Shown here: positions 5,342 through 60,557 of the stretch, in pieces
Layout: the number at the start of each line of letters is the position of its first letter
How positions within the stretch are numbered: position 1 is the first letter of the stretch
Source: Candidatus Levyibacteriota bacterium
GTDB lineage: Bacteria > Patescibacteriota > Microgenomatia > Levybacterales > UBA12049
Direction of reading: 5' to 3'
Assembly (NCBI GenBank): GCA_016186645.1
Contig: JACPLF010000007.1
Span: 9,151-73,150, forward strand
Length of the DNA stretch: 64,000 bases
Program-made: the position numbers and the translations under genes
Notes under the pieces: generated by a model
What the model saw: only the letters and a program-made list of their open reading frames with translations
The model's database searches: none
Told to the model about the DNA's origin: nothing

Positions 5342-5345
5342 AAGT

Positions 5346-12796: not shown

Positions 12797-13774
12797 TTAA
12801 AATAAATGCTCCTCTATTAAACGTGCGCCTTTACTTGGATAATTAACAATTGTCTTTTGAACATCTGAAATTTCTTTTGTTTTTTTGACAACTTTTTCTA
12901 CGTCTTTTTTTTGACAAATAAGATGAATGTCTTGTCCTGTATTAACAGTAAAATAAACCGGCAAACCATCAGCCCTCCATCTTTTAACAGCATGCATGAC
13001 TTTCAAGGTTCCTGGCAGCCAATAAATAAGTGAAGGAGTAGATGTCATCATAATTGCATGAAGTTCCAACGCCTCTCCTTCTACTAATTCTCCGAATTTA
13101 GGGAAATTTTTATGATCCATATATTTTTTTATTAAATTTATTTTCCCTTTTATTCTTGCCAAACGGACTGGGAAAAATGGACTGGAGCTTGCTAATTTTT
13201 GTCCTTCGGTTGTCGAAACTTCTTTCTTATTTTTACTAACAACCGCCACCACATCAACAATGTCCCAATAATTTTCATTATGCAATGAAACGCCATATGA
13301 TGTCCCGCTGGTGTTCCCATCCAGCCATTCAACAAATCCATCCGGAATAGAACGGCAGGCAGAGCCTGAACCCTGCCTTCCGAGAATTGATAATTCTTTT
13401 TCTGATAAATTTAGATCCGCAGCTGAAGCAGTGGCAACAGTTAATGCGGCAAATCCGGAGGCAGATGAAGAAAGACCGGTACCTATTGGAAAATTATTTT
13501 TTGTAACAACTTTTGCTTTATAATTTATTTTTGCTAATTTTCTAATTCTATCCAAATGTTTAATTGCTCTGCTTCCCGAATTTTCTTCTTTTTGATTATT
13601 AATAATTATCTCGTCTTCTTTAAAATTTTTATTGAACTCAACAGTAGTTATTGTCAAAAGGTTGCTAAGATTCATTGAGATACTACCATTTTCAGGAAGC
13701 CTGAGCCTTTCGTCTTTTCTTCCCCAATATTTTATAAACGCTATGTTGGATGGAGCCACTGCAGTTTTCTTCAT
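12797..13774 (-). CDS. mvaD: diphosphomevalonate decarboxylase
   Basis: PSNIAFIKYWGRKD and GTGLSSSASGFAAL GHMP motifs, MVD-specific N-terminus. Confidence 0.85.
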   Translation of the reverse strand: MKKTAVAPSNIAFIKYWGRKDERLRLPENGSISMNLSNLLTITTVEFNKNFKEDEIIINNQKEENSGSRAIKHLDRIRKLAKINYKAKVVTKNNFPIGTGLSSSASGFAALTVATASAADLNLSEKELSILGRQGSGSACRSIPDGFVEWLDGNTSGTSYGVSLHNENYWDIVDVVAVVSKNKKEVSTTEGQKLASSSPFFPVRLARIKGKINLIKKYMDHKNFPKFGELVEGEALELHAIMMTSTPSLIYWLPGTLKVMHAVKRWRADGLPVYFTVNTGQDIHLICQKKDVEKVVKKTKEISDVQKTIVNYPSKGARLIEEHLF

Positions 13775-14781
13775 TATTCAATTCTAACACCTTCTGCGTT
13801 AGTTTTAATATCAATAATTTTTCCTCCGGCTTTTTCAACAGCTTTTTTAATATTAAGTTTACTCGCAGCGGAGTAAAGAGCAATCATGCAATCCCCTCTG
13901 CCAGCTCCAGTTAGTTTTGCCCCATAAGCACCAACATTAAGCGCTCCTTTAATCATTAGGTCTAATTTTCCTATACTAACCCCTAATTCCTTAAGATATT
14001 CCTGATTTTTATTCATTATTTCTCCAAATTTCTTCCAATCTTTTTTCAAAAGCGCGCCCTTTGCCTCATTAACCAAAATTTCAATACCATTATAAATTTC
14101 CGAAAGTCTATTCTGTCTATTGGCAAAAGATTCTTTTACTTTATTTATAAGAGTTACCGTATCCGCTTTTATACCGCTATAACCAACAACAAGGGACAAT
14201 GATTTAATGTTTAAAGATTGAATTACTTTTCCTCCTGTTACGAAATAAAGTGTTCCGCCAAAAATTCCCGCCGCAACATCAAAGCCTGATCCTTTACCCT
14301 GAATATCCAAAACAGTTTTGTATGCCAAATCAAAAATTTCTTTTTGAGATAAATTAAGATCTAACAATTCCGAAACTGCTTTTACTGTGCAAACAGTTGA
14401 TGCGGATGAAGATCCAAAACCAAATTGAGAAGAAAATTCTGATTTTGTTGTTACTTTTATTCCTTTTTTTCCTGTCATCCCGAATGCCCCTCGGGGTATC
14501 TTCGACTTGTTTCGGGATCTACCTAATAAATTTGCTACCGCCACTTCCACAAATTTAGCCCCCTTAGGAATATCTCCCTTTCCAACTTCGCTCATTGGTT
14601 TTTTATAATCAGCTATTTGCACATCTGGCGCTTGGAGTTCAAAAAACGGTTCGTTTATAAGTTCCACAGTTGCCCGCATTCTTTGATCAACTGCAGTTAC
14701 CAAACACGGATGATTATAAACAACCGCATGTTCTCCCAAAAGCAACAATTTTCCGGGTGCAGAAACAGTAATTTTATTCAT
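13774..14781 (-). CDS. GHMP kinase, probable phosphomevalonate kinase (carries an in-frame palindromic insertion)
   Basis: APGKLLLLGEHAVVY N-terminus and GFGSSSAS motif II. Assignment versus mevalonate kinase relies on being the second GHMP kinase in the operon. Confidence 0.55.
   Translation of the reverse strand: MNKITVSAPGKLLLLGEHAVVYNHPCLVTAVDQRMRATVELINEPFFELQAPDVQIADYKKPMSEVGKGDIPKGAKFVEVAVANLLGRSRNKSKIPRGAFGMTGKKGIKVTTKSEFSSQFGFGSSSASTVCTVKAVSELLDLNLSQKEIFDLAYKTVLDIQGKGSGFDVAAGIFGGTLYFVTGGKVIQSLNIKSLSLVVGYSGIKADTVTLINKVKESFANRQNRLSEIYNGIEILVNEAKGALLKKDWKKFGEIMNKNQEYLKELGVSIGKLDLMIKGALNVGAYGAKLTGAGRGDCMIALYSAASKLNIKKAVEKAGGKIIDIKTNAEGVRIE
14473..14518. repeat. GC-rich palindromic element embedded in-frame in the GHMP kinase gene
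   Basis: TGTCATCCCGAA-TGCCCCTCGGGGTATCTTCGACTTG-TTTCGGGAT: inverted termini plus CCCCTCGGGG core. Local GC spike inside AT-rich coding DNA. Confidence 0.5.
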
Positions 14782-15724
14782 TTTCCTCCCTTAATCCTTC
14801 CTCTCCGGTTCGTATCGTCAGTAACTCCAAACTATTTTGTTTTGCATAATTTAATAACTTTTTAATATCTTTATGATATGCAAGAAGCATCCCCGACCCT
14901 AATTTAATACCTCCGCCTCCAGTTATTTTCGCAGCTCCTCCTAATTCCTCTATTTCTCTAATTAAAACCTGTGCTTTTTTCCCTACAACACCTAATTTCT
15001 CCAGATTTTGCTCTCCTAATTTAATACAATCAATAAGAGCGTCTTCATCCCCATCTTTCAATGCAATAACCATCTGTTTTGTTAATTCTTCTTGAAAATT
15101 AAATAATTCTTGCGCCTTTTTTGGAAACTTTTTCTTAAGCTTTGCTACTTTTTCAATCATTTCCTTAGTTGATTCCTCTGGTTTTCCAGAATTTATCAAA
15201 ATAAATTGATTAATATTTTTATGCAGCTTAAAAGGAAGAGAGGAAAATGTTTTGAAAAATTCGAAGTCCTTACGAAACCATAAAAATCCTCCTTCAATAG
15301 CTGTCGCCAAATCTCCTCCAGATGGATTTCCATGAAAAAATTTTTCCCCCTCATAGGCAATATCAAAAATAGTTTTTTTATCCCAAGGTATTTTTAAAAA
15401 AGCTAACAAAGCAGCAGTAAAACCAGCAGAAAGCGCAGAGGAAGACCCAAGTCCAGACCCTACGGGAACTTGCGAGTTTATTTTAATTGAATAGGGTTCT
15501 ATTTTTTTAAGCTTTGTCAGTTTTTTAATTTCTTTTTCTAATATTTTTAGGAGCTGTTTTATTTCCTTTTCATATGATTGAACTCCTAGAATTTGCTTAT
15601 TCTTTGAATAGTTAATTGTTACCGATAGTCTCTTATTAATAGCAGCAAGAAGTGCTGGCTTACCATATACGACTGAGTGTTCTCCGAGCAGATGGACTTT
15701 CGAAGGAACGGAAACTGTGATCAT
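14774..15724 (-). CDS. mvk: mevalonate kinase
   Basis: VPSKVHLLGEHSVVYG, GSGLGSSSALSAG GHMP motifs. Confidence 0.6.
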   Translation of the reverse strand: MITVSVPSKVHLLGEHSVVYGKPALLAAINKRLSVTINYSKNKQILGVQSYEKEIKQLLKILEKEIKKLTKLKKIEPYSIKINSQVPVGSGLGSSSALSAGFTAALLAFLKIPWDKKTIFDIAYEGEKFFHGNPSGGDLATAIEGGFLWFRKDFEFFKTFSSLPFKLHKNINQFILINSGKPEESTKEMIEKVAKLKKKFPKKAQELFNFQEELTKQMVIALKDGDEDALIDCIKLGEQNLEKLGVVGKKAQVLIREIEELGGAAKITGGGGIKLGSGMLLAYHKDIKKLLNYAKQNSLELLTIRTGEEGLREENE

Positions 15725-16023
15725 AGAGGTTTAAATTTGATGTTGTAATAAATAACATCTTCCTTTTCTTCCGTTCGCAATCTTCGCAAAACCGATACAA
15801 CTTCTTTCCCGATTACCAAATCTTTTTCCTGCCAATCAACAAGTTGTCCGATCGTGTGCTCTCCATTCTGCATTTTGACAATTATAACAGGATACGGTGC
15901 TTGATCCATAAAAGATTTTGCGGGAACCCTAATAAGAGTCCACTGCAAAATTTTCCCTTTTTTCCCAATAAGGGCTGATGTATTTTTCTGTCTTCTCCAA
16001 AGTTTTACAGGCGATGTTACCAT
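15721..16023 (-). CDS. DUF35-like OB-fold protein (partner of archaeal-type thiolase/HMG-CoA synthase complex)
   Basis: About 100 aa, directly downstream of thiolase and HMGCS as in archaeal operons. OB-fold-like C-terminal portion, lacks the Zn-ribbon cysteines. Confidence 0.45.
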   Translation of the reverse strand: MVTSPVKLWRRQKNTSALIGKKGKILQWTLIRVPAKSFMDQAPYPVIIVKMQNGEHTIGQLVDWQEKDLVIGKEVVSVLRRLRTEEKEDVIYYNIKFKPL

Positions 16024-16028
16024 ATAAG

Positions 16029-16054
16029 TGTCATCCTGAATTTATTTCAGGATC
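16029..16054. repeat. short palindromic repeat TGTCATCCTGAA-TTTA-TTCAGGAT
   Basis: Perfect 8-bp hairpin. Same motif with a compensatory C/G change at 23529. Confidence 0.6.
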
Positions 16055-17195
16055 TCAAAATATGAATTACCGCGATAGCTCCTGACCCTCCAACATTATG
16101 AGTCAATCCTATTCTTGCTCTTTTAACTTGTCTTTTTTGAGCCGTTCCTCGCAATTGTTCTGTGATTTCAACTATTTGCTTAATGCCAGTTGCCCCAACC
16201 GGGTGGCCGCAGGATTTAAGTCCGCCTGATGGATTGCAAATAATATCTCCTTTAAAAAGAGTTCTTTTTCCCTTCGCGATGTCCCTTGCTCCCTCCCCCT
16301 TTTTTGAAAATCCCAAATCTTCTGTTGCAATTGCTTCTGAAATAGAAAAACAGTCATGAATTTCTGCAACATCAATATCAGATGGTTTTATTCCCGCTTT
16401 TTTATAAGCCTTTGTCGATGCATCAATAACTGCCGCTAAACTCGTAAACGATTTTCTATCGTGCAAACTAAGAGTATCTGTTCCAACCTCACTTGCAATA
16501 ATATGTATTGGTTTCTTTACTTTTTTAGCGACATTTCCGCTGGTAATAACAACTGCTGCTGCGCCATCGGAAATTGGAGAACAATCCAAAAGCTTTAGGG
16601 GATCTGCAATTTTTGAACTTCTCATAACATCCCCAACTGTTACCAGAAATTGAAATTGCGCTTTGGAATTAAGCGTTCCATGATAATGATTTTTGACTGA
16701 AACAGCTGCCAGATCTTCCTCTGTCGCTTTATATTTTTGCATGTAAGCTTGCGCCATAAGAGCATAAACCCCGGGAAAAGTTGCTCCTGCCATACGCTCC
16801 TCATCCGACCCCGCAGCCATAAGAGCAGTTGTAATTTCATCTTGACTATGATCCGTCATTTTTTCAATGCCTAAAACCAGAACTGTTTTATATTGTCCTG
16901 CCTTAAGACTATTAATGGCATTATGAAGAGCTAACCCCCCTGAAGCACAAGCGCCTTCAATTTTAAATGCAGGAATTTGAACGCCTAGCTCTTCAACAAG
17001 CAATGATCCCAAATTTGCCTGATTTCCCAATATTCCGGACAACATATTCCCAACAAACAAAGCATCTATCTGGGTTGCTTTCAATCCCGATGCTTTCAAA
17101 GCATTCTCCATCGCTTCTTTTGCCAGTGTACGAGGGGATACGTTCCATAATTCCCCAAACTTTGTTGAATAGGCTCCTAAAATTTGCATCTTCAT
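16047..17195 (-). CDS. acetyl-CoA C-acetyltransferase (archaeal-type thiolase)
   Basis: Thiolase active-site Cys (GACASGGLALH) and C-terminal GHPVGATG. Confidence 0.85.
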   Translation of the reverse strand: MKMQILGAYSTKFGELWNVSPRTLAKEAMENALKASGLKATQIDALFVGNMLSGILGNQANLGSLLVEELGVQIPAFKIEGACASGGLALHNAINSLKAGQYKTVLVLGIEKMTDHSQDEITTALMAAGSDEERMAGATFPGVYALMAQAYMQKYKATEEDLAAVSVKNHYHGTLNSKAQFQFLVTVGDVMRSSKIADPLKLLDCSPISDGAAAVVITSGNVAKKVKKPIHIIASEVGTDTLSLHDRKSFTSLAAVIDASTKAYKKAGIKPSDIDVAEIHDCFSISEAIATEDLGFSKKGEGARDIAKGKRTLFKGDIICNPSGGLKSCGHPVGATGIKQIVEITEQLRGTAQKRQVKRARIGLTHNVGGSGAIAVIHILRS

Positions 17196-18229
17196 ATTGC
17201 GTGTGTTTGCCTTAGATAAGTCGCATAAGAAATATATATCTTGTCTTCCATTTGCTTCAAAACAGGAACTGTCCTTTTTTGTTTTTTCAGAATTTCTTTT
17301 GTGACTTCAAAAATAAACCCATCTGAACCGGCACCCGATCCATAAGAAACAAAAAATATTTTTTGTTTTGGTTTTGCAATATCCAAAACACTGGCAAGTC
17401 CCATCAAGGAAGACGCGGAATATGGATTGCCAATCTTATCAACCGTTAGCGATGGAGCTAACTGCTCAGGAGTGAACCCGAGTTTTCTGGCTGCTACTCT
17501 TGGAAACTTTCCATTTGGCATATGAAATACGCAATAAGAAAAATCCGAGGAAGTAAGTTTGCTTTTGGAAAGTAAGTTTTTACCTTCTTCAATTACGTGA
17601 GTAAAATAAGCCGGTTCTCCAGTAAATCTTCCAAAGTGAGATGGATATTTTGCTCCCTCTCTTCTCCAAAAATCCGGAGTATCTGAGGAAAATGATGACA
17701 TAGAAAGAATATTAGCAATAATTTCAGATTGCTTATTGCCCAAAATATATGCGCATGCGGCACTCGCAGCCGTATATTCCAATGCATCATGAGGCTTCCC
17801 TTGAGCAGTATCGCTTCCTACGACTAATCCATATTCTATATTTCGGCTTTCCAATAATCCTGCTGTAACTTGCATGCCTGCAGTTGCAGCTTTACAAGCA
17901 AACTCCAAATCAGCTGCAAAATAATTATTTCCAACACCTAAATATTCCCCCAGAGTTGTCGAGGATGGCTTAACTGCATAGGGATGACTTTCTGAACCAA
18001 AATATACCGACTCAAGAAGAGATGAGTTAATCCCTGCCATATGAATAGCTTTTTTGGCGGCTTCTATTCCCATTGTTACAGCATCTTCATCAAACCCAGG
18101 CACAGCTTTTTCTATAATACGAAGTCCTCCTTCTATCTCACCCGCATCTTTTCCCCACATTTGAGCGATTTCAGAAAGTTTGAGTCGATATTTTGGAATA
18201 TAAGTTCCGTATCCAACAATCCCTATCAT
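17192..18229 (-). CDS. hydroxymethylglutaryl-CoA synthase (archaeal type)
   Basis: MIGIVGYGTYIPKYRL N-terminus, FHMPNGKF, archaeal HMGCS length. Confidence 0.85.
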   Translation of the reverse strand: MIGIVGYGTYIPKYRLKLSEIAQMWGKDAGEIEGGLRIIEKAVPGFDEDAVTMGIEAAKKAIHMAGINSSLLESVYFGSESHPYAVKPSSTTLGEYLGVGNNYFAADLEFACKAATAGMQVTAGLLESRNIEYGLVVGSDTAQGKPHDALEYTAASAACAYILGNKQSEIIANILSMSSFSSDTPDFWRREGAKYPSHFGRFTGEPAYFTHVIEEGKNLLSKSKLTSSDFSYCVFHMPNGKFPRVAARKLGFTPEQLAPSLTVDKIGNPYSASSLMGLASVLDIAKPKQKIFFVSYGSGAGSDGFIFEVTKEILKKQKRTVPVLKQMEDKIYISYATYLRQTHAI

Positions 18230-19377
18230 AGATTCTCTCCTCTGCCAAATTTTTTGTGAGCTTTTACTAAAGAGTTCTCTGCCAAAGAAGATAATAGTGA
18301 GATTTCTCCTGCTAAAACGGATCCAGCGACAACTTCTGCCAGTTCTAAAACTGATCTTTTTTTGTCAAGTTTTAATAGATTAATCGCTTCTTTCTGGGTA
18401 GAAAGTCCTGTTCCGCCACCTATTATGCCAAGCATTAAAGAAGGCAGATAAACAGACGTGTACAAACTCTTATCAGGCATTACTTTCATTGTCGTGATGC
18501 CAAGGCTTCCTTCAACAACGTGGGCCGGGTCTTGCCCTGTTGCGATATAAAAAGCGGCAATGACATTTGCAAAATGAGCGTTAAATCCTAAAGAGCCGGA
18601 CATTGCCGAACCAATCATGCATTTCGCTAACCAAACATCAAACAATTTCTCAGAATCTATTTTTAAAATCTCCTTTAAAATTTTCTCAGAAAGCACAACT
18701 TCTGCCCAAGCTTTAATGCCTCTATGATTAATGAAATTCATCCACGAAGCCTTTTTATCAACATCATAATTTCCTGCAAGGGACAAAGATTTTATTCCTG
18801 TTTCTTTCTCTATAAGTTCTGTTATCGCTTGAGCAGCAATTGTAGCCATATTCATCCCCATTGCATCCCCGGTATCAAACGAGAAGCGTATAAAAGCATA
18901 ATTTCCAAGCCCTGCAAATTTTAGTTTTTTAAATTTCAAATGTTTTGATGTTTTTTCTGCTATTTTTTTTATTTTATCTTCGTTTACTTTAACCCATTTA
19001 TAAAGTTTTCTTTCATTTTTAAGATTTCCCGTATAAAAAACAGGTCCCCTTGTCGCTCCTACTCTATAGGAATATACGTTTGCACCGTTGGACTCACAAA
19101 TTGCTTTACAGCCTCTGTTAACCGACGCTACCAATGCTCCTTCTGTGGTAGCAAGGGGAATATAATAATTGCGGACAGGTAATTCTCCGCTTTTCAATTT
19201 TAAAGGACCTGCCACGCCCAAAGGAATCTGAACCGCACCAATCATATTTTCGCAATTTTTTGTCGAGGCTAATTTGGCATCAAAAGAATAGTTTCCTATG
19301 TGAGAAAGTTTAACTCGTAACTCTTTTTCTAATGCCTTGCGTCTTAAATCAACATTTGAATAGCCACGAAAATCCAT
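18226..19377 (-). CDS. hmgA: hydroxymethylglutaryl-CoA reductase (class I)
   Basis: DAMGMNM, TTEGALVAS, GTGL motifs. Confidence 0.9.
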   Translation of the reverse strand: MDFRGYSNVDLRRKALEKELRVKLSHIGNYSFDAKLASTKNCENMIGAVQIPLGVAGPLKLKSGELPVRNYYIPLATTEGALVASVNRGCKAICESNGANVYSYRVGATRGPVFYTGNLKNERKLYKWVKVNEDKIKKIAEKTSKHLKFKKLKFAGLGNYAFIRFSFDTGDAMGMNMATIAAQAITELIEKETGIKSLSLAGNYDVDKKASWMNFINHRGIKAWAEVVLSEKILKEILKIDSEKLFDVWLAKCMIGSAMSGSLGFNAHFANVIAAFYIATGQDPAHVVEGSLGITTMKVMPDKSLYTSVYLPSLMLGIIGGGTGLSTQKEAINLLKLDKKRSVLELAEVVAGSVLAGEISLLSSLAENSLVKAHKKFGRGENL

Positions 19378-22456: not shown

Positions 22457-22588
22457 AGTGTTTTGACTGTAGAAAATAGAAGCTTGAAAGTAGGTATTGA
22501 AGGTAGAAGTTGGAAGATAAAAAACAGTCTCTCTACCCTCTATCTTCGATCTTCAAATTTCTATCTTCCACTGTCTATTTTCTATCGT

Positions 22589-25087: not shown

Positions 25088-25089
25088 AA

Positions 25090-25183
25090 TAATATTAAAT
25101 TTTAAATAGTAAATTGTAAAAATACATTGCAAATTTAAAATTTTCTATGTAGATTTACTATTTACAATTTTCTATTTGCTATG
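25090..25183. repeat. AT-rich ~80-bp intergenic repeat, copy A (rpmJ/rpsM spacer)
   Basis: Shares core TAAATAGTAAATTGCAAAAATACATT...TTTACTATTTACAATTTTCTATTTGCTAT with the other copies. Confidence 0.8.
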
Positions 25184-25186
25184 ATT

Positions 25187-25300
25187 CTAGCCTTGTCTTT
25201 GTTTGTGCTTTGGATTTTCGCAAACAACTCTTACCACACCTCTTCGTCTTATGATTTTGCATTTGACACATCTTTTTTTAACACTTGCTTGAACCTTCAT
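25187..25300 (-). CDS. rpmJ: 50S ribosomal protein L36 (not in ORF track; 37 aa)
   Basis: Translated by hand as [37 protein letters not shown] with the C-x2-C-x12-C-x4-H ribbon. Sits in the canonical infA-rpmJ-rpsM position. Confidence 0.85.
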
Positions 25301-25384
25301 AAAAATATTAAATATTAAATAGTAAATTGCAAAAATACATTTAAAATTTCAAATGTGTATTTACTATTTACAATTTTCTATTTG
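25301..25384. repeat. AT-rich intergenic repeat, copy B (infA/rpmJ spacer)
   Basis: Near-identical to copy C. Confidence 0.85.
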
Positions 25385-25603
25385 CTATTTATAACGGTAC
25401 ACTATTCTTCCTTTCGTCTTGTCATACGGAGTCATTTCGACTCTGACCTTATCTCCGGGCAAGATTTTTATAAAATTCATTCTCATTTTGCCCGATAAGT
25501 GACAAAGAATTATAGCTCCATTTGTCAGTTCTACTCTAAAAAGGGTATTGGGTAAAGACTCCTTAACAACGCCTTCTATCTCAAAAGATCCCTGGTGTGC
25601 CAT
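25385..25603 (-). CDS. infA: translation initiation factor IF-1
   Basis: S1-like fold: [20 protein letters not shown]... Confidence 0.95.
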
Positions 25604-25692
25604 AGTAAATTTAAAATAGTAAATTGCAAAAATACATTTAAAATTTCAAATGTGTATTTACTATTTACAATTTTCTATTTGCTATTGAAGCC
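25604..25692. repeat. AT-rich intergenic repeat, copy C (map/infA spacer)
   Basis: Near-identical to copy B. Confidence 0.85.
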
Positions 25693-25723
25693 AATTATAC
25701 CAGACTAGCCTCTAAAGAACAAG

Positions 25724-26512
25724 CTATTTAGTTAACACTATTGCCCCCTCGTTTGTGATGGCTATTGTTCTTTCAAAAAGTCCCGACAGACTACCATCTT
25801 TACTTTTTATAGTCCACCCATCGGAATTTGAAAATACAACCTCGCTCTTACCCATATTGTAAATTGCTTCAATTGCAATTGTCATACCAATTTTCAGAAG
25901 AGGCGTTTCCAAGACAGAGCCATCCAAAAAGCCTGGAACTTCAGGATCTTCATGAAGCTCCCGACCTACTCCATGGCCAATCAGACTTCTTACAACAGAA
26001 TATCCTTGCCCTTCCACAACTTTCTGAATTGCTTTTGAAATATCTCCTACTCTATTTCCTGCTTTTGCAGCTTCTATTCCCTCCCACATCGCCTTCTCCC
26101 CAGTCTTCAGAAACTTATCCACCTCATCCAAACTTTGAACTTGCCTGCCCACCGAGGAGGGGAACCTTGAACTTTTAACTCGCACCGTCTGTGCGGCGTC
26201 CGTGTGAAACCCTTTATAATATACTCCGCAATCTATTCCAACTACATCTCCATCTTTCAATCTATGTTCTGTTGGAACTCCATGAACAACAACGTCATTT
26301 ATAGAGATGCAAATCGTGTGCTTATACCCATCAACTTTCTTAAATCCGGGCTCAGCACCTTTTTCAATAATTAACTTTTCCGCCAATTGGTCTAATTCCA
26401 ATTCTGAAACTCCGGCTTTTGCATGCTTTAAAACTTCTTTTAAAACTTCTGCCAATATTTCTCCACCCTCTCGCATTATCTCAATTTCCTCTTTTGTTTT
26501 TACCTTAATCAT
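25724..26512 (-). CDS. map: type I methionine aminopeptidase
   Basis: Metal ligands in DVVGIDCGV and GHGVGRELHE. Confidence 0.9.
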   Translation of the reverse strand: MIKVKTKEEIEIMREGGEILAEVLKEVLKHAKAGVSELELDQLAEKLIIEKGAEPGFKKVDGYKHTICISINDVVVHGVPTEHRLKDGDVVGIDCGVYYKGFHTDAAQTVRVKSSRFPSSVGRQVQSLDEVDKFLKTGEKAMWEGIEAAKAGNRVGDISKAIQKVVEGQGYSVVRSLIGHGVGRELHEDPEVPGFLDGSVLETPLLKIGMTIAIEAIYNMGKSEVVFSNSDGWTIKSKDGSLSGLFERTIAITNEGAIVLTK

Positions 26513-27069
26513 TTTATTCCTAATCGATTTAATATATCCTGATGAATTTCTTCAATATGTCTTTCTCCATTTATCTCCTCAAGTATTCCTTTTTCTTTAA
26601 AATAATTTATTACTGGTAATCTCTCTTCTCCTTGAACCCTCAATCTTCTTACAACTATTTCAGGATCATCATCGGGGCGGCCCTCCCTGCCTTTCTTAAG
26701 CATTCTTCCTAGTCTTTCCTGATCAGATATATTTATTAGGAATACTTTGTTTACCGAAAGATAATTTTCCGAAAGATATTTATTAAAAACGTCAAGGCCG
26801 TCTTGTCTTTCAGGAAAATTATCAAGTATAAAGCCGCTTTTTGCTTTATCCATCCTCTCTTTAAGTAAAGGAAATTTAATCTCAATAGGAAGATGAAGTC
26901 CTTTCATACTATATTCCTCAAATGCTTTTGCTATTCTCTGGTTGCCTTCATCGCGAGCTTGCCTAATTAGAGCCCCCATTGAAAAAACCGGCAAATTAAG
27001 TTTTTGCCCAAGAAGCTTTGATTGTGTACCTTTACCTATATAAGGCGGCCCAATAAAAATAATAATCAT
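26509..27069 (-). CDS. adenylate/nucleoside-monophosphate kinase (short, LID-less), copy 2
   Basis: P-loop IGPPYIGKGTQ and FILDNFPE (NMP-binding) motifs. Confidence 0.6.
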   Translation of the reverse strand: MIIIFIGPPYIGKGTQSKLLGQKLNLPVFSMGALIRQARDEGNQRIAKAFEEYSMKGLHLPIEIKFPLLKERMDKAKSGFILDNFPERQDGLDVFNKYLSENYLSVNKVFLINISDQERLGRMLKKGREGRPDDDPEIVVRRLRVQGEERLPVINYFKEKGILEEINGERHIEEIHQDILNRLGIK

Positions 27070-27638
27070 TAATTCTCCTTAAGTGCATCTTGAATTTTAT
27101 TTTTAAGCTCGCCCAAACTGCTATTATTTTCTATAAATATGTCTGAGAGCGCAAGACAGATTGCAACCTGCAGTCCTTTTTTTCCTTCTCCAATCCCCAA
27201 ATCTCGGTTATCCAATTTATTGAATAATTGCCAATTTAATTCTTCGCGCCTCTTAAGTTTTTTAAGCCTGTCAAATCGAATTTTTCTATTTACTACAATG
27301 CCAATCAATTTAAAATTGCCTTGTTTTCTGAATTCATCAATCTCCGAATCATTCCTAAAACCTTCAACAACAACTTTTTTCATTTCTCTTTTACTAATTA
27401 ATTCTAGAGCCTTTTTGGCTAGGATTCCTGGACGGTATTTCTCCCTCCACTCGTTTCCCAAATCTTGAAGAAGTTGACGCGTAATATCTTTTTCTCCTCG
27501 ATTTTTCAATTCTTCTTCTAAAAATTGCACTAAGCTAATCTTCGTAAATCCAAGACTTTTAAGAATTTCAGCGGCTGTTGATTTACCGCTGCCAAATGCT
27601 CCTGTGATTCCTATGATAAGAGGTTTATTTTCTAACAC
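27069..27638 (-). CDS. P-loop nucleotide kinase (dephospho-CoA kinase / NMP kinase-like)
   Basis: IIGITGAFGSGKST Walker A resembling CoaE/cytidylate-kinase-like families. Confidence 0.45.
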   Translation of the reverse strand: MLENKPLIIGITGAFGSGKSTAAEILKSLGFTKISLVQFLEEELKNRGEKDITRQLLQDLGNEWREKYRPGILAKKALELISKREMKKVVVEGFRNDSEIDEFRKQGNFKLIGIVVNRKIRFDRLKKLKRREELNWQLFNKLDNRDLGIGEGKKGLQVAICLALSDIFIENNSSLGELKNKIQDALKEN

Positions 27639-27639
27639 A

Positions 27640-28179
27640 CTAGCTTTTAATTTGCTCCATTATTTCTTTGTGAATTTCTTCAATTGATTTTTCTCCATCT
27701 ATCTCAACCAGTATCCCATTTTGTTTATAATAATCCAAAACCGGTTCTGTTAATTCATGAAAAAGTTCAATTCTTTTTCTAATAGCTGTTAGTGTTTCAT
27801 CTTCACGACTATCCCCATTTCTATAAGAAAGCCTCCACAATGCTTCCCTGTCTGAAACTTTCAGATAGACAACTTTATCAACTCCATTCTCAAACATTTT
27901 TACCTGCTCCAAAGTTCTTGGAAATCCATCCAGAATATAGCCTTTTTTATATTCAGGTTTTTTAAGATATTCGCTCACTATTTCAACTGTTTTTTCATCA
28001 GGAATCAGATATCCGGCGTTCATAATCTCTTTTATGTAACGACCAAGCGGAGTTTTTTCTTTTGCCATTTCTCTGAAAATATGTCCTGTTGAAAGATAAG
28101 GAATCTTGAGGTTTTCAGACAAAAGATTTCCTTGAGTCGATTTTCCTGCTCCTTGAATACCTATCAGTATAATCTTCAT
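27640..28179 (-). CDS. adk: adenylate kinase
   Basis: GIQGAGKSTQ, YILDGFPRT. Canonical position after secY. Confidence 0.8.
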   Translation of the reverse strand: MKIILIGIQGAGKSTQGNLLSENLKIPYLSTGHIFREMAKEKTPLGRYIKEIMNAGYLIPDEKTVEIVSEYLKKPEYKKGYILDGFPRTLEQVKMFENGVDKVVYLKVSDREALWRLSYRNGDSREDETLTAIRKRIELFHELTEPVLDYYKQNGILVEIDGEKSIEEIHKEIMEQIKS

Positions 28180-28221
28180 AGTAAATTTAAAATAGTAAAC
28201 TTCAAATACACATTTAAGATT
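28180..28221. repeat. AT-rich intergenic repeat, partial copy D
   Basis: CATAGTAAATTTAAAATAGTAAAC... left flank of the four-helix-bundle gene. Confidence 0.6.
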
Positions 28222-28608
28222 TTAAATAGATCTTTTTCCTTTAATTGTTAGTATACTTGACGCAAAGATATTTGAATACTCATCAAGTTCTTTTAAGAAT
28301 GGATCCGCTTTTTCTTTAGATGTGCGTTTGGAATCTCTTAGAAGCGCTACCCATACTTTACTTTCGTTGGAAGATTTTAAGCAATATTGAATAAATATTA
28401 AAAACTCTTTTTTAGAACTTGCCGATTGACCTTCAATGTAGTTGCCCAAGATGCTTGTACCGCTTCTTAAAAGTTGATCGCCAATAATATATGATACACG
28501 ATCTTTCGGAAGATTATCAATAAATTCTATTAATCTCAAAATAAAACTATAAAGCTTTCTTTTAAATTCCTCTTTATTAAATTGTTTTTTTATATTTTCT
28601 GTTTGCAT
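28222..28608 (-). CDS. four-helix-bundle protein (TIGR02436 / 23S-rRNA-intervening-sequence-protein family)
   Basis: QLLRSGTSILGNYIEG..KKEFLIFIQYCLKSSNESKVW matches the family consensus. Inserted between secY and adk and flanked by AT-rich repeat copies. Confidence 0.65.
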   Translation of the reverse strand: MQTENIKKQFNKEEFKRKLYSFILRLIEFIDNLPKDRVSYIIGDQLLRSGTSILGNYIEGQSASSKKEFLIFIQYCLKSSNESKVWVALLRDSKRTSKEKADPFLKELDEYSNIFASSILTIKGKRSI

Positions 28609-28646
28609 TTTAAAATGTATTTTTACAATTTACTATTTACAATTTA
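28609..28646. repeat. AT-rich intergenic repeat, partial copy E
   Basis: ...TTTTACAATTTACTATTTACAATTTACTATT right flank of the four-helix-bundle gene. Confidence 0.6.
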
Positions 28647-29936
28647 CTATTTTTTGTTGTAGCCTTCGTAATTTCGCATAACCAGCTGAGCTTCAATTGA
28701 TTTGATGGTTTCCAAAACCACAGACACAACGATTAAAATTCCCGTTCCTCCCAACATAAGTGTTTGTACATTTGTGAATGCGCGGGCAATAGTTGGAAAA
28801 ATTGCAATAGTTCCCAAAAATATTGCACCAGCTAATGTTATACGAGTCAAGATGTAATTTAAATAGCTTGCTGTAGGAGTACCTGGTCTAATTCCAGGAA
28901 TAAAACCTCCATATTTCTGTATTTCCCCAGCTATTTTTTTTGGATTAAAAATAACAGCAGTATAAAAATATGTAAAGCCTACAACTAATATAAAGTAAAG
29001 GCCATTGTAGAATGCGCCATTGGGATCAAATAATCCTGTTATGGTTGCAGCAAGATTACTTAAGAATCTATTGGGAGATGCAGTTAAATAATTAGCAACT
29101 ACTGATGGCAAAAGAACTAAGGAAACAGCAAAGATTATTGGGATTACACCTGCCTGATTCACTCGAAGCGGCAGATGAGTTGATTGACCTCCATACATTT
29201 TATTTCCCCTGACTCTTTTTGCATAATAAACAGTTATTCGGCGGGTTCCTTCATTAATAAGAATTATGGATGCAATTACAAACAAACCTATTGCCAAGAA
29301 CGTGATTAAATTGAAAAAATTAGCAGCATTTACAGTTGATAATGTCTGGCCAAAAATAACAGGAATTCTTCCGACAATTCCCGCAAATATAAGAAGAGAA
29401 ATTCCATTTCCGACTCCTTTTTCAGAAATTAACTCTCCCAACCAAACTAAAAGCATTGTTCCTGCAGTCATTGTTGCAACAAAAGATATGATGTCAATTG
29501 TACTTAGGGTAGAAATAATTCCCTGACTACGCAAAAGCGCGTACATACCAATTGATTGCAAAATTGCTAAAGGAACTGTCAGCATCCTTGTGTACTGATT
29601 GATCTTTTGTCTTCCTGATTCTCCTTCTTTAGATAATGCTTCGAGTTTTGGGAAAACCATTGTTAATAATTGTAAAATAATGGAAGCATTAATATATGGG
29701 TTAAGTCCTAGTGCCATTACAGAAAAGTTGGCAAGCGTTCCTCCTGAAAAAATATCCAAAAGGCCTAGGAATTGATTTTGTGAAAAAAGGGATTTTAATG
29801 CGTCTAGATTTACACCTGCAACAGGTATATGGGCGAAGATTCTAAAGACGACGAAAATAGCTGCAGTAAATAAAAGCTTTTTCCTGACGTCTGGAGTTTT
29901 TATACTTTTACTAAAAATTCCAAAAATATTGTTCAT
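28647..29936 (-). CDS. secY: preprotein translocase subunit SecY
   Basis: 10 TM helices, SecY signatures. Confidence 0.95.
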
Positions 29937-30036
29937 AGTAGTGATTTAAAATTTTAAATAGTAAATTGCAAACTTACATTGCAAATTTGAAATTTCAAAT
30001 GTGTATTTACTATTTTAAATTTACTATTTACAATTC
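29937..30036. repeat. AT-rich intergenic repeat, copy F (secY/rplO spacer, abuts rplO stop)
   Basis: Full-length copy including the internal inverted repeat. Confidence 0.8.
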
Positions 30037-30468
30037 TACTTTCCCTCCGGCTTTCAAAATTTTCTTTGCCGCTCCTTTTGACACGGGTAATTTAACTGTT
30101 AAAGCAATATTAAGGTTTCCATCTCCCAAAATTTTGATTCCGTTTTTCTTGGCATAATCGGGATTCACAATTTTATTGTCAATAAGTGATCCTAGATCAA
30201 CTACCGTGCCTTTTTTTAATAAATTCAAAACCTTTACATTTACAATAATTGGACCTTTCCTGAAAGACTTATTCTTGCCTTTTCCTCTCATAAACGGAAG
30301 CCTTTTAATAAGAGTTAGTGCTCCGCCTTCAAAAGTCAAAGGAATATTTCCTTTTGCTTTTTGTCCTTTTGTTCCTCGTCCACTTGTTTTTCCGCGCCCT
30401 GATCCATGGCCCTGACCTAGTCTTTTTTGTCTTGATTCCGTGATTTTTTTCAAAGATGAAAGTTTCAT
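30028..30468 (-). CDS. rplO: 50S ribosomal protein L15
   Basis: GRGTKGQKAKGN..FEGG. Confidence 0.95.
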   Translation of the reverse strand: MKLSSLKKITESRQKRLGQGHGSGRGKTSGRGTKGQKAKGNIPLTFEGGALTLIKRLPFMRGKGKNKSFRKGPIIVNVKVLNLLKKGTVVDLGSLIDNKIVNPDYAKKNGIKILGDGNLNIALTVKLPVSKGAAKKILKAGGKVEL

Positions 30469-30583
30469 GCTACTTCGCTCATCCTTTCTTTAAATAATAT
30501 TTTTAACATAATTAAACTGCTTTTATAAGCTTACTAAGCTTCGGCGGCATGACCCTTCGTAGTTGTAACGAAGAGGGTCATAA

Positions 30584-31075
30584 TTATTTTGCTCTTGATT
30601 TAATTCTATTATATCTCTGTGTCATAAGTCTTAGCGCTTCAATAGTCGCATAGACATTGCTTGCTTGGTTTTTGGTACCCATAACTTTGGAAGAAACATT
30701 TTCTATTCCGGCTAGAGCAACAACACTTCTGACTGCGCCTCCTGCGATAACCCCCGAACCTTTTGGGGCTGGCTTTAACATAACTTTTGCTGCACCCAAC
30801 TTTATAGTATACTCAAAAGGAATAGTCCCATTGATAATTGGCACTTCAATAGCGTGCTTTTTCCCAAGCAAAACTCCTTTTTTTATAGCAGACGATATTT
30901 CAGGACCCTTTCCAAGCCCTACTCCGACTTTTCCCTTTTTGTTTCCGACAACAGTTAAGACTGAAAATCCAATCTTGTTTCCGCCTTTTGTCTTCTTGGA
31001 AACTCTATTAACCTGAACTATCTTTTCTTCAAATCCATCAGTTGGTCTATCTTTATAAAATCTTGAGTCGTTCAT
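30584..31075 (-). CDS. rpsE: 30S ribosomal protein S5
   Basis: S5 dsRBD and C-terminal domain. No rpmD between rpsE and rplO. Confidence 0.95.
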   Translation of the reverse strand: MNDSRFYKDRPTDGFEEKIVQVNRVSKKTKGGNKIGFSVLTVVGNKKGKVGVGLGKGPEISSAIKKGVLLGKKHAIEVPIINGTIPFEYTIKLGAAKVMLKPAPKGSGVIAGGAVRSVVALAGIENVSSKVMGTKNQASNVYATIEALRLMTQRYNRIKSRAK

Positions 31076-31419
31076 TAGAATTCCAGTCCTCCTTCCCTAG
31101 CTCCCTGTGCGATCGAGCTTATTCTTCCATGATATGAATAGCTTCCGCGATCAAATACAACTTTTTTGATTTTTTTGTCAATTGCCTTTTTCGCCAACAA
31201 GACTCCAACTGCTTTTGCTCTCGCGCTTTTGCCTGTCAACTTTTCTTTTAGATGCTTTTCTGAAACTCCGACAATTGTCTTTCTAGCGTCATCATTTATG
31301 AGCTGCGCATACACCAAACGATTAGACTTAAACACAGAAAGTCTCGGCCTGTCCTTTGTACCCCTGATCTTAGATCTCACTCTGATTTCTCTTTTTATTT
31401 TGTTGTCTAACTTTCTCAT
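31075..31419 (-). CDS. rplR: 50S ribosomal protein L18
   Basis: L18 signature. Confidence 0.95.
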   Translation of the reverse strand: MRKLDNKIKREIRVRSKIRGTKDRPRLSVFKSNRLVYAQLINDDARKTIVGVSEKHLKEKLTGKSARAKAVGVLLAKKAIDKKIKKVVFDRGSYSYHGRISSIAQGAREGGLEF

Positions 31420-31499
31420 ATTAATTTTAAATATTAAATATCAAATTGTAAAAATACATTTAAAATTTAAAATGTGTATTTACTATTTACAATTTACTA
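31420..31499. repeat. AT-rich intergenic repeat, copy G (rplR/rplF spacer)
   Basis: Full-length copy. Confidence 0.8.
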
Positions 31500-32051
31500 T
31501 CATTTCGCTCCTAATGCTTTTGCTGCTTTTCCCACTTTTCTTCTTATTTTTTCATCCTTGTATTTTATACCTTTCCCTTTATATGGCTCGGGCGGTCTTA
31601 TTGCTCTTATTCTGGATGCCATATTTCCAACCATATCTTTATCGCTACCCAGAACTGTAATTACATTTTCATCAACCGTGAACGTTAACCCATCTGGAGC
31701 CGTAATCTTTACAGGATGAGAAAAACCAACAGAGAGAGTCAAATCCCGGCCTGCTGCTTGAACTCTGTATCCAACCCCTGAAAGTTCGAGCTTTTTCTCA
31801 AAACCCGTTAAAACACCGGTAACCATATTTGAAATCATAGCTCTTGTTAATCCCAAAGATGGCTTTAATCCTTCATTATTCTTGTCTTTCAAAGAAACTA
31901 CCAAACGCCCCTCTACTGATTTTACGTCAATTCCTTGTGGGAGCTTGAAAGAAAGATTTCCTTTAGGTCCGCTAATTTTAACAATATCCTGATCAAAAGC
32001 AACGTTCACGCCTTCTTTGATCATAACTGGTTTTTTTGCAAGTTTAGACAT
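31500..32051 (-). CDS. rplF: 50S ribosomal protein L6
   Basis: L6 two-domain signature. Confidence 0.95.
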   Translation of the reverse strand: MSKLAKKPVMIKEGVNVAFDQDIVKISGPKGNLSFKLPQGIDVKSVEGRLVVSLKDKNNEGLKPSLGLTRAMISNMVTGVLTGFEKKLELSGVGYRVQAAGRDLTLSVGFSHPVKITAPDGLTFTVDENVITVLGSDKDMVGNMASRIRAIRPPEPYKGKGIKYKDEKIRRKVGKAAKALGAK

Positions 32052-32121
32052 ACATTCGCTCCTTTGCGTCGCTCAAATTAAAAATTAAAAATGAAAAATT
32101 CAAAATTAACTTTTAACTTTT

Positions 32122-32163
32122 CCCGCCCGACTTCGCCTGCGAGCGAACTCGCTGGCGGGCGGG
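32122..32163. promoter_or_regulatory. GC-rich stem-loop between rpsH and rplF
   Basis: CCCGCCCG..GCGAG-CGAA-CTCGC..CGGGCGGG flanked by AACTTTTAAC repeats. Confidence 0.4.
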
Positions 32164-32179
32164 CACTTTGAACTTTTAA

Positions 32180-36010: not shown

Positions 36011-36078
36011 ATTAATTCAGCGTTTAGTTAATGAGCGTCTAGCGTCTAGTTTCTAAACTGAACGCTAGTTGCTAAACG

Positions 36079-36372: not shown

Positions 36373-36405
36373 TGTCATTCTGAGCGTTAGCGAAGAATCT
36401 CAGAG
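36373..36405. repeat. palindromic repeat TGTCATTCTGAGCGTTAGCGAAGAATCTCAGAG (rplB-rpsS spacer)
   Basis: Shares the CTGAGCGTTAGC(C)GAAG core with 50059-50079 and 10317-10338. Confidence 0.5.
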
Positions 36406-36435
36406 ATCCTTCACGTTCGTTCAGGATAAGCTTTC

Positions 36436-37490: not shown

Positions 37491-38315
37491 TTATTTTTGC
37501 TTGCCCCTCGAAGCGAAATCGTTGTGGGGTCCTTTCATAAAAGTATCTTCAATAACATCTACCGCATCTCTCATAAGTAAAATCAATTTGTTATCAATAA
37601 CTTTATAAGCATTGATCATGTTTGCAGTCAATATCTCTACTCCTTCGATATTTCTTGCAGCCCTGTAAACATTTTCTGCTTCTTTTGCCTTAGGCATTAC
37701 CAATAAAACTCTGGAAGCATTTTTTATTCCCAAATTTTCCAAAACTTGAGCCATTAATTGTGTTTTAGGTGTTATTTCTTCCAATCCTTTTACGATTTTT
37801 AGTTCGTTGTCTTTAAGCTTTGAGGAAAGTGCTGAGAAAAGCGCAAGGGTTTTCATTTTTTTTGAGAGACTGAGAGAAAAATCTCGGGGTCTTGGTCCAA
37901 AAGCAAGTCCTCCGCCGACAAAAATAGGAGCTCTTTTTGAGCCGTGGCGGGCGCGTCCTGTACCTTTTTGCTGCCAGACTTTTTTGGTTGTTTTATTTAC
38001 TTCTCCTCTGTCTTTTGTCTTGACTGTTCCCTGTCTTTGATTTGCCAAATAAACTCTGACCGCTTGGGCCATAAGAGAATCATTTATTTTTGCGCCAAAT
38101 ACTTCAGTCGGCAAACTAATGCTGCCTGATACTTTTCCTTTTGTGTCAAAAACAGAAGCGTTTAAACCTGCTCCCTTTGTTTTTGCCAAAACAGGAATTT
38201 TAGCTTCAATCTTAGCCTTTTTAGCTGATTTTTTTACAACAATTTTAGGAGCTTTAATATTCTTTTTCGCAACTTTTAATTTTGAACTTTTAACTTTTAA
38301 CTTTTTAGCTGGCAT
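37491..38315 (-). CDS. rplD: 50S ribosomal protein L4 with ~55-aa Lys/Ala-rich N-terminal extension
   Basis: L4 core (QKGTGRARHGS..). Unusual KAKK-rich N-terminus. Confidence 0.9.
   Translation of the reverse strand: MPAKKLKVKSSKLKVAKKNIKAPKIVVKKSAKKAKIEAKIPVLAKTKGAGLNASVFDTKGKVSGSISLPTEVFGAKINDSLMAQAVRVYLANQRQGTVKTKDRGEVNKTTKKVWQQKGTGRARHGSKRAPIFVGGGLAFGPRPRDFSLSLSKKMKTLALFSALSSKLKDNELKIVKGLEEITPKTQLMAQVLENLGIKNASRVLLVMPKAKEAENVYRAARNIEGVEILTANMINAYKVIDNKLILLMRDAVDVIEDTFMKGPHNDFASRGKQK
37504..37529. repeat. GC-rich palindromic motif CCCCTCGAAG-hairpin-GGGG (overlaps rplD 3-prime end)
   Basis: CCCCTCGAAGCGAAATCGTTGTGGGG. Confidence 0.6.
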
Positions 38316-43056: not shown

Positions 43057-43149
43057 AAAGCTAAATTGACCTAATTACTCTAACTTCTAACTCACCTAAA
43101 GAAATACCAAGTTCCAACTTAGAAATTAGGCCTGCCACGTTTTACGTGG

Positions 43150-45393: not shown

Positions 45394-45822
45394 TCATAAT
45401 TCCTTCCAGTTTGAAAATGTATAATATCCGTTACTATAATTCATTTGCGCCTGAACAGTTCTTTTAAAATTTCCATTTTGCCCAACCGAGACAACAGTCT
45501 TTGGATTAGCTCCTGTTACTGTTATTACTGCTGTTCCTGTACCAACTGTTAATGTCTCCCCTGCATAATTAGGATCTCGCAACAATCTTAAGAGCGCATT
45601 CTCAACTCCGCTTTCTGCCGTATAATATGCCGATGTCCCCTCCTGAAGCTTACTTGCGGAAATAGAGTTGGCAATAATAATTATTATTGCTCCAGAAGTA
45701 ATTGTCAATGAAATCAATACAAAAAATAATAATGTTATTAACGCCTGCCCCTTTTGAAGATGAGAAATGAGAAATGAGAAATGAGAAATATCTAGTAATT
45801 TGTTTTTAAAATTATTTTTCAT
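45394..45822 (-). CDS. pilin-like protein with long repeat-encoded leader (atypical cleavage motif G/QALIT)
   Basis: Leader MKNNFKNKLLDISHFSFLISHLQKG then a hydrophobic helix. Thr not Glu at +5. Confidence 0.45.
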   Translation of the reverse strand: MKNNFKNKLLDISHFSFLISHLQKGQALITLLFFVLISLTITSGAIIIIIANSISASKLQEGTSAYYTAESGVENALLRLLRDPNYAGETLTVGTGTAVITVTGANPKTVVSVGQNGNFKRTVQAQMNYSNGYYTFSNWKEL

Positions 45823-45847
45823 TTTTCACCTTTCATTTTTCATTTTG
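45762..45847. repeat. heptanucleotide tandem repeat cassette: (GAGAAAT)x4 inside the pilin-like leader plus upstream (TTTTTCA)-like x4 arm
   Basis: Exact 4x GAGAAAT on plus (ATTTCTC on the coding strand, encoding ISHFSFLISH). Inverted arm tttttcatttttcacctttcatttttca spans the RBS/start. Confidence 0.85.
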
Positions 45848-48449: not shown

Positions 48450-48475
48450 TTTTCATTTCTAATTTTTCATTTTTA
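48401..48475. repeat. heptanucleotide repeat cassette (GAGANAT)x4 in the 665-aa pilin-like leader plus inverted (TTTTTCA)-like arm
   Basis: gagatat gagagat gagagat gagaaat, then tttttca tttttca tttctaa tttttca. Confidence 0.8.
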
Positions 48476-48991: not shown

Positions 48992-48994
48992 TTT

Positions 48995-54354: not shown

Positions 54355-54438
54355 ATATTTTCTGGATGTAAAATGAACAAGCTAAGCTGTTTTAAATCTT
54401 ATTGATTTATTTTTCTTTGCTCTGTATTCTAAGATAGA

Positions 54439-54666: not shown

Positions 54667-54716
54667 ATCCTGCACAGTTACTGCGTGGAGATGCGGCCGG
54701 TGAAAATAAGTAAAGC

Positions 54717-57192: not shown

Positions 57193-57258
57193 AATAATAA
57201 AATCTCAAAAATCAAAGGTCAAAACTCAAAATTATCGCAGACTTGAGATTTGCCTTGT

Positions 57259-60548: not shown

Positions 60549-60557
60549 ATTTTTAAA

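Follow-up and report, generated by a model that had tools for sequence, protein, structure and literature searches.

How do essential operons tolerate structured insertions of 80–130 nt between the stop codon of one gene and the start codon of the next? The question is raised by a 64,000-nt stretch of a Candidatus Levyibacteriota genome (hereafter the window, meaning the whole stretch that was analyzed), in which all genes between 21.5 and 64 kb lie on the minus strand and include the S10, spc and alpha ribosomal operons. Here, gene-less copies of an AT-rich repeat colonize almost every spacer of a ribosomal operon that is otherwise tightly packed. We consider it probable that these repeats are insertion-polymorphic “solo” members, devoid of an open reading frame (ORF), of a cassette class resembling the intervening sequences (IVSs) of 23S rRNA, in which heptamer arrays are associated with a four-helix-bundle (FHB) gene. 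They point to a widespread insertion element that is undescribed outside rRNA in the literature we searched.

FHB denotes here the gene or protein of the PF05635/TIGR02436 family, also labeled “23S rRNA intervening-sequence protein”, S23p or Avd-like. The origin and mobility of rRNA IVSs have been an open matter since about 1990, as has the function of this very abundant protein family. The locus described below shows a gene-in-heptamer-hairpin module within mRNA operons, and the cassette class to which it would belong offers a testable route to both problems.

An AT-rich repeat family between ribosomal genes

The original prediction placed an AT-rich repeat in the spacers of the spc and alpha operons, and its reality was confirmed by three approaches. 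A repeat search returned one family of seven members, starting at 25092, 25305, 25602, 28178, 28567, 29944 and 31424. Dinucleotide shuffles predict 0.16 and 1.6 occurrences of two core motifs that were counted 19 and 23 times, and all matches in the scanned window except two weak ones fell within 25090–31500. Finally, an nhmmer profile of five full copies recovered all five (E 1e-14 to 1e-18) and gave no further match in the 64 kb.

The number of copies had been put at seven or more. The same element is indeed present in every spacer named, but the elements are six, not seven, because the pieces in the adk/four-helix and four-helix/secY spacers are the 3′ and 5′ halves of a single one. Five elements are complete (80–99 nt) and one is split by a 128-codon FHB gene, all within 6.4 kb. 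They occupy 6 of the 11 gene boundaries from rplF to rpsM and none of about 70 elsewhere in the window, a count for a region chosen after the hits had been seen, and hence indicative only. All six copies lie between protein-coding genes and not in an rRNA helix; an Rfam 15 scan at the gathering score found no rRNA in the window.

The copies are all read on the minus strand, and the five full ones share one orientation. Copy 1 (25088..25186) constitutes the entire 99-nt rpmJ/rpsM spacer, with an identity of 0.58 at a lag of 7 nt. Copy 2 (25301..25384) is the entire infA/rpmJ spacer, whose 84 nt amount to exactly 12 heptamers, the first unit following directly after the TAG stop codon of infA; it has the lowest minimum free energy (MFE) of the set, −16.8 kcal/mol (z −4.3), and a lag-7 identity of 0.65. 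Copy 3 (25604..25690) forms the distal 87 nt of the 120-nt map/infA spacer, and its end, ...TTTACT, abuts the infA ATG and is identical to the 3′ end of the FHB cassette. Since it lies between that ATG and a conserved sigma-70-type promoter, TTGTTC-17-(TG)TATAAT (TTGTTC-17-TGGTATAAT; 25694..25722, minus strand, outside the element), copy 3 belongs to the 5′ untranslated region of infA. Copies 4 (29937..30027) and 5 (31420..31499) are the entire rplO/secY spacer, 91 nt or 13 heptamers, and the entire 80-nt rplF/rplR spacer, respectively.

The ORF-bearing copy is situated between secY and adk. Its 5′ arm (28609..28649, minus strand) opens with the secY stop codon TAG (28647–28649) followed by TAAATTG TAAATAG TAAATTG TAAAAAT..., so that the arm without the TAG covers 28609–28646. 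The FHB gene (28222..28608, minus strand) occupies the loop of the element, and the 3′ arm (28180..28221, minus strand) lies between the FHB stop codon and the adk ATG.

The internal inverted repeat that had been predicted was recovered in every copy as a single imperfect AU-rich hairpin on the gene strand, with an MFE of −10.5 to −16.8 kcal/mol and z-scores of −1.1 to −4.3. About five 7-nt units (AAATAGT/AAATTGT) make up each arm, laid out as CAAATAG AAAATTG TAAATAG TAAATAC, then the loop, then ...TTTGCAA TTTACTA TTTAATA; lag-7 identity ranges from 0.58 to 0.65. Only 1–3 G–C pairs occur in the stems, and the elements are ~85% A+T. The outermost bases read TAGTAAAT...ATTTACTA: at secY the TAG serves as the stop codon, and the last A doubles as the first base of the ATG of infA and adk. 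Between the two arms of the FHB cassette, the predicted duplex reaches −29.6 kcal/mol. The genes that follow an element have no Shine–Dalgarno (SD) motif, whereas rplF and rplO, which follow other spacers, have one.

The copies align positionally, are distinguished by a 7-nt indel, and share an identity of 80–100% over 68–88 nt, non-periodic loop sequence included. The positional alignment and the hairpin indicate that the repeat is not merely low-complexity AT-rich spacer, in agreement with what had been anticipated.

For comparison, we used 80 SecY-centered metagenome loci from related Microgenomates (L011–L090; SecY 66–92% identical, the same genes annotated). In most of them, the orthologous spacers measure 1–15 nt or the genes overlap; an example of an empty site is infA/rpmJ in L015, which reads “TAA t ATG”. 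Because the same boundaries are this short in most relatives, the copies in the window are insertions; they fill the spacer from stop to start codon and form hairpins with 7-nt periodic arms. Spacers of 60–180 nt do appear sporadically in the relatives, at boundaries that differ between genomes, and the window genome is extreme in having all ten compared boundaries filled.

The inserts of the relatives belong to other sequence families, yet almost all of them are hairpins whose arms have a 7-nt period. In 153 unique long spacers, identity rose to 0.41 at lag 7 and to 0.375 at lag 14 from ~0.29 at other lags, and 7 was the best lag in 69 of them, as compared to ~8% in shuffles; within the window, the same holds for 15 of 34 spacers of at least 50 nt. 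Folding z-scores lay below −2 in 70% of the 131 spacers of 50–200 nt. Single genomes can carry one family at several boundaries (L014, L017, L074, L079 and L088), and one family can occupy non-orthologous boundaries in different genomes, such as rpsS/rplV in the window and rpmJ/rpsM in L015, or rpsH/rplF in the window and infA/rpmJ in L001. Conversely, unrelated families occupy the same site in different genomes. The infA promoter itself is conserved in nearly all relatives, with or without a hairpin (TTGCnG-17-TGnTATAAT in the map/infA spacers of L011–L090), and the stretch from it to the infA start codon has received insertions of many distinct hairpin families.

Placement within the spacers is precise. 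Across 75 spacers with a hairpin, the median distance is 3 nt from the stop codon to the stem and 9 nt from the end of the stem to the start codon (asymmetry p = 3e-6), which leaves an A/U-rich unpaired tail before the AUG; an SD-like motif was present in only 6 of the 75.

Two candidate roles for the arrays were rejected. Heptamers do not act as stop-codon traps in all three frames, as 549 stops were observed against 576 ± 15 in shuffles. Nor do the elements resemble intrinsic terminators: they have no G+C-rich stem with a U tract, and all six terminator-like sites of the scan fell outside an element. No known structured RNA family was found in the spacers either, a tRNA being the only one to pass the Rfam 15 gathering score in the 64 kb.

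FHB cassettes in other genomes and phyla

The 128-residue ORF of the window matches TIGR02436 (“four helix bundle protein”, E 4e-22) and the structure 2rld of the PDB (E 4e-11), which has five chains; PF05635 was assigned to its homologues and to a 96%-identical protein in locus L005. Only one of the six copies in the window contains the FHB ORF. A pattern scan for the half-element over one genome per GTDB species (the source genome is absent from the GTDB representatives) gave a single match in each of three other metagenome-assembled genomes, and two of these matches (L002 and L004) abut the end of an FHB gene. In addition, in all contigs looked up for close FHB homologues (70–96% identity), the gene is closely framed by an A-rich arm on its 5′ side and, on its 3′ side, by an arm of the same family that is complementary to the first.

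These cassettes are found at several sites: between secY and adk in the window and L005; upstream of pth in L002, L006–L010 and L100–L105; between a Fic gene and a small membrane protein gene in L004; between PG-binding and Wzy genes in L106; between leuC and leuD in L092; and after plsY in L099. Among the readable secY/adk spacers of the SecY-anchored loci, L005 alone carries the FHB gene besides the window. A Sedimentisphaerales FHB protein that is 65–70% identical is encoded between leuC and leuD, a WOR-3 homologue is similarly conserved, and both genes have short complementary heptamer-like flanks.

Other FHB paralogues are flanked by different arm families, which match other solo families. 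The 3′ arm of the FHB gene L006c, (GACTTTT)n, matches spacers in many loci, and the (AAATATC)n arms of the L106 gene match L076 and L079, the latter of which also contains solo copies of the AT-rich family of the window.

The arrangement extends to plasmids and viruses. A tblastn search of PLSDB recovered FHB genes in Nostoc, Planktothrix, Gloeocapsa, Bernardetia and Ca. Chlorohelix. Inverted heptamer arrays bracket the gene in nine of ten plasmid regions (Bernardetia is unclear), and co-oriented genes are annotated on both sides, likewise in nine of ten (the exception is L115). In plasmid pNPUN02 of N. punctiforme, the order is (AATTCGC)x4 ... ORF ... (GCGAATT)x4, with a predicted duplex of −61.6 kcal/mol; further plasmid units are (GGAGGTC)n, (AATCCCC)/(AATCGTA)n, (ATTTTAG)n and (ATGAAGG)n. 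Clean cases among IMG/VR viral contigs are L118, L122 and L124.

When 29 FHB genes were pooled and compared with 202 other genes of the same loci, their flanks were more periodic (lag-7 identity 0.60 versus 0.35, p = 7e-11) and more complementary (upstream–downstream duplex −23.6 versus −11.6 kcal/mol, p = 5e-9). The unit also changes in concert through all repeats of both arms: AATTCGC accompanies proteins that are 91% identical, and AATTCGT those that are 71% identical. The same architecture, an FHB gene within heptamer arrays, is present in bacteria of the Candidate Phyla Radiation (CPR), Planctomycetota, WOR-3, cyanobacterial and Chlorohelix plasmids and viral contigs.

In the literature that we searched, whose coverage is incomplete so that an earlier description may exist elsewhere, neither FHB genes in inverted heptamer arrays outside rRNA nor hairpin colonization of CPR ribosomal operons were described. 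The recurrence of this anatomy in cultured cyanobacteria makes it accessible to genetic tests there.

Origin and role of the elements

The nearest known counterpart is the 23S rRNA IVS that encodes S23p in Leptospira, Coxiella, Xanthomonas and Brucella, in which a homologous PF05635 ORF likewise sits inside an inverted-repeat stem of ~28 bp (PMC4990558). In Coxiella burnetii, the IVS was described as a selfish element; its S23p ORF lies in the loop of a 28-bp terminal-inverted-repeat stem, 3–4 tandem heptamers (GACAGAT) precede the ORF in strain-variable number, and the RNA is excised by RNase III (PMC4990558). The two groups share tandem heptamers of variable copy number beside the ORF and a patchy distribution suggestive of horizontal transfer. 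They differ in the host transcript, which here is a polycistronic mRNA with the element in a stop–start spacer, whereas IVSs reside in helix 9, 25 or 45 of 23S rRNA, and in that the element of the window has proliferated into six neighboring sites. Short hairpin IVSs that lack an ORF also exist, for example in Salmonella and Campylobacter.

Taken as members of such a class, the elements would consist of two inverted arrays of ~4–6 heptamers pairing into a stem of 25–30 bp, with the FHB gene held in the loop of the ORF-bearing form; the window genome would then contain one such cassette (secY–adk) and five solo copies. We infer that they are selfish or mobile and have spread mostly to gene boundaries close by; they would be transcribed as part of the operon and fold in the mRNA. 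Deletion of the ORF between the short direct repeats TTTAAAAT present at both ends of the cassette could yield the solo form, and predicts ...ACATTTTAAAATCTTAAATGT..., close to the loop of the rplF/rplR copy. As for the question posed at the outset, the stem is probably cut by RNase III, by analogy with 23S IVSs; alternatively, a terminating ribosome may open the base of the stem beside the downstream AUG and allow translation to continue. Either proposal would make the insertion tolerable.

Several observations weigh against this view. Near the hairpins of L011–L090, no FHB gene was found within ±10 kb of SecY, and solo hairpins far outnumber ORF-bearing copies, so the link to FHB depends on the arm sequence and architecture that the two forms have in common. 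Several genomes have the FHB gene at the same place upstream of pth, where it behaves as if stably inherited and not like an active mobile element. No target-site duplication or insertion boundary could be defined from filled versus empty junctions, since the ancestral spacers are tiny (1–11 nt) and diverged. A scan of the ORFs of the window revealed no transposase, reverse transcriptase or RNase III gene, and FHB is, to our knowledge, not a known recombinase. At the RNA level, the AT-rich stems are weak, with z > −2 in two copies. The five copies are too similar for covariation to be informative, showing one double change in 24 pairs. By raw energy, folding favors the sense strand (83 versus 47 spacers), an asymmetry due to base composition, as the z-scores are equal (p = 0.85). 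Sense and antisense strands thus fold alike once composition is controlled, and an RNA-level function is only a candidate, not demonstrated.

The most serious alternative, to which we nonetheless give a low probability, is that the hairpins are cis-regulatory and benefit the host, having spread by selection instead of selfish mobility. They would serve as candidate sites for a trans-acting factor, most plausibly a pentameric FHB with one subunit per heptamer, or as translational-coupling or mRNA-stability devices that tune the ratios of ribosomal cistrons. The number of units per arm, about five, is consistent with the five chains of 2rld and with S23p homologues being pentameric toroids, that of Xanthomonas being built of four-helix bundles (PMC4990558). 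Also in line with regulation are the pairing of each FHB type with its own heptamer, the clustering of the copies in one operon region, and the exact fit of the hairpins into the stop–start interval, where an A/U-rich tail stays unpaired; moreover, SD-less, start-adjacent intergenic heptamers have been proposed as translational regulators in Beggiatoaceae (PMC4679880). The closest relatives, however, lack hairpins at the same boundaries, unrelated families take the same site in different genomes, and most hairpin-rich loci have no FHB gene nearby. Of the earlier suggestion that the repeats are binding sites for a regulator, a modified form survives, in which the heptamer arrays are possible sites for FHB itself.

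A mobile origin had been suggested as well, in the form of a MITE-like element (miniature inverted-repeat transposable element). This is the closest of the three readings then offered, given the insertions, the inverted-repeat ends and the non-orthologous sites. The elements are not MITEs in the classical sense, however, as no target-site duplication could be defined and no transposase is linked. Like MITEs and other hairpin repeats (Correia/NEMIS, RUP, ERIC and REP/REPIN), the elements are short, non-coding, multi-copy inverted repeats, polymorphic for insertion and presumably co-transcribed. Correia elements serve as substrates of RNase III and may contain promoter-like hexamers. Unlike in those families, no transposase-bearing parent or RAYT was identified here, the arms are heptamer arrays instead of unique terminal inverted repeats, and the sole ORF-bearing relative encodes FHB, which the original prediction named only as a neighboring gene, and not a transposase.

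A specific version of this idea holds that the repeats are of the REP/REPIN type and that a Y1 (RAYT/IS200-like) transposase mobilizes them in trans by acting on their hairpins in single-stranded DNA, with FHB as only an occasional passenger. We regard it as improbable. Their size and hairpin form do resemble REPIN doublets, they are intergenic inside operons, several families coexist per genome, and a Y1_Tnp gene is present in the related contig L106. Nevertheless, the 64-kb window has no Y1 transposase, and the hairpin beside the L106 gene is not a heptamer array. The elements are AT-rich, 80–99 nt long and begin with TAGTAAAT, without the GTAG/CGTC tag or the G+C-rich stem of REPs, which are imperfect palindromes of 20–40 nt, and a passenger model does not predict the association of FHB with arrays across phyla.

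It is very doubtful that the copies are reiterated internal promoters (TTGCAA/TTTACA-16/17-TAATAT, 4 nt before the ATG) producing near-leaderless rpsM, rpmJ and rplR transcripts. The promoter-like hexamers noted originally are present: in copies 1, 2 and 5 the pair, spaced 16–17 nt apart, stands 4 nt ahead of the ATG, the promoter scan reports two of these pairs, and the downstream genes lack an SD motif. Their abundance is about what AT-rich palindromes would give and barely above that in shuffles, with 33 sites in the region against 24 ± 4.5 expected and matches within the elements on both strands. In the infA and adk copies, the −10 hexamer would overlap the ATG, copy 3 stands downstream of a bona fide conserved promoter, and in relatives hairpin families that are not AT-rich and of quite different sequence take the same kinds of sites.

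Hardly credible is independent growth in situ, in which AT-rich heptamers would have multiplied within each spacer by replication slippage and nothing would have been copied from one site to another: 7-nt indels and the variable heptamer number of Coxiella strains are compatible with it, but it is disfavored by the 80–100% identity over 68–88 nt that includes the non-periodic loop, by the common orientation of the five copies and by identical families at non-orthologous sites in different genomes.

Returning to the reading as FHB-associated insertion cassettes, further systems share parts of their anatomy. Intergenic direct repeats of the heptamer TAACTGA occur in Beggiatoaceae, Cyanobacteria and Bacteroidetes, where they often end 1 nt before SD-less starts and have no linked gene (PMC4679880). 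Together with the short tandemly repeated repetitive (STRR) sequences, these repeats resemble the present elements in being tandem 7-nt intergenic units that often end near an SD-less start, in their patchiness and in occurring in the same FHB-rich phyla; they differ in having been described as direct arrays without a linked gene, whereas here inverted pairs form hairpins and are linked to FHB. The cyanobacterial STRR sequences are heptanucleotide repeats. Rickettsia palindromic elements (RPEs) are hairpin repeats that are also found in-frame within coding regions, and the map gene of the present clade has a heptamer-derived in-frame insert; RPEs, though, show neither heptamer periodicity nor an FHB association, and belong to a different lineage. 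The Avd protein of diversity-generating retroelements has the same fold family as FHB (PF05635/bAvd). Avd forms pentamers and, jointly with a reverse transcriptase, binds nucleic acid. Unlike in Avd systems, no reverse transcriptase, template repeat or variable repeat was found near the cassettes examined.

Tentatively, and with a low probability in our judgment, FHB genes with inverted arrays, CPR solo hairpins, 23S IVSs and possibly the STRR and TAACTGA repeats, long unexplained, could all form one class. In it, a pentameric FHB would read the arrays in RNA or single-stranded DNA, one subunit per heptamer, and would drive or license their copying into new gene boundaries. If true, this would provide a function for PF05635 and an explanation for the origin of IVSs.

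Other hairpins and genes of the window

Hairpins of other families occupy further operon spacers of the window, at 22457–22588, 32052–32179, 36011–36078, 36379–36435, 43057–43149 and 57193–57300. Most have 7-nt periodic arms (GAAGATA; AAAAGTT around a GC-rich core; CTAGACG; AATCTCA), and in two of them a 3′ module supplies the SD motif (GAGCGAnnnAAGGAGCGAAnnT ATG). Several of these families recur at different boundaries in L030, L017, L081, L015 and L001. The Y1 (IS200/RAYT-type) transposase gene of L106 lies at 1–420 of that contig, which also contains an FHB cassette, and has its own perfect hairpin, AATGTATTGGTTT...AAACCAATACATT.

Hairpins of the (AAATGAG)n/(CTCATTT)n type are located at 45751–45847, 48391–48472, 48926–48994 and 60549–60625, upstream of three pilin-like genes and rpsL. 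ORF callers run the pilin ORFs into the (AAATGAG)n arrays, creating spurious N-termini such as “ISHFSFLISHL”. In CPR annotation, arrays of this kind cause spurious small ORFs, wrong start codons and in-frame inserts.

Heptamers were also observed within coding regions. Throughout the clade, map (methionine aminopeptidase) has a short hypervariable in-frame insert at one position (~26140–26200 in the window, minus strand), which is a heptamer/hairpin element inside a coding region, like those of RPEs. In L015 (12884–12915), it consists of (AAAAGTC)x4, translated as KSKVKSQKS; in the window it resembles the rpsH/rplF element, and L056 has 17 additional residues. An L4-like ribosomal protein (37491–38315; L081 2130–2200) has a lysine-rich N-terminal extension encoded by (AAAGTCA)n-type heptamers, so heptamer arrays also contribute low-complexity coding sequence.

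Between secY/FHB and map, three nucleotide-kinase-like genes stand in a row (26509–28179). Two are adenylate-kinase-like, and the third encodes a P-loop kinase that weakly resembles the kinase portion of an anti-phage dCTP deaminase. At 54355–54822, co-oriented genes are separated by a gap of 468 nt that gave no Rfam match at E ≤ 0.1 and contains only a 75-codon ORF on the opposite strand. A divergent bacterial RNase P RNA was detected on the minus strand at 5345–5772 (RF00010, 36.4 bits against a gathering score of 100, E 7e-10; full model, positions 1–367, over 428 nt); the scan at the gathering score had missed it. Finally, a complete-looking mevalonate cluster at 12797–19377, comprising HMG-CoA reductase, thiolase/HMG-CoA synthase-like genes, three GHMP kinases and a decarboxylase, adjoins the ribosomal operons in this small-genome bacterium.

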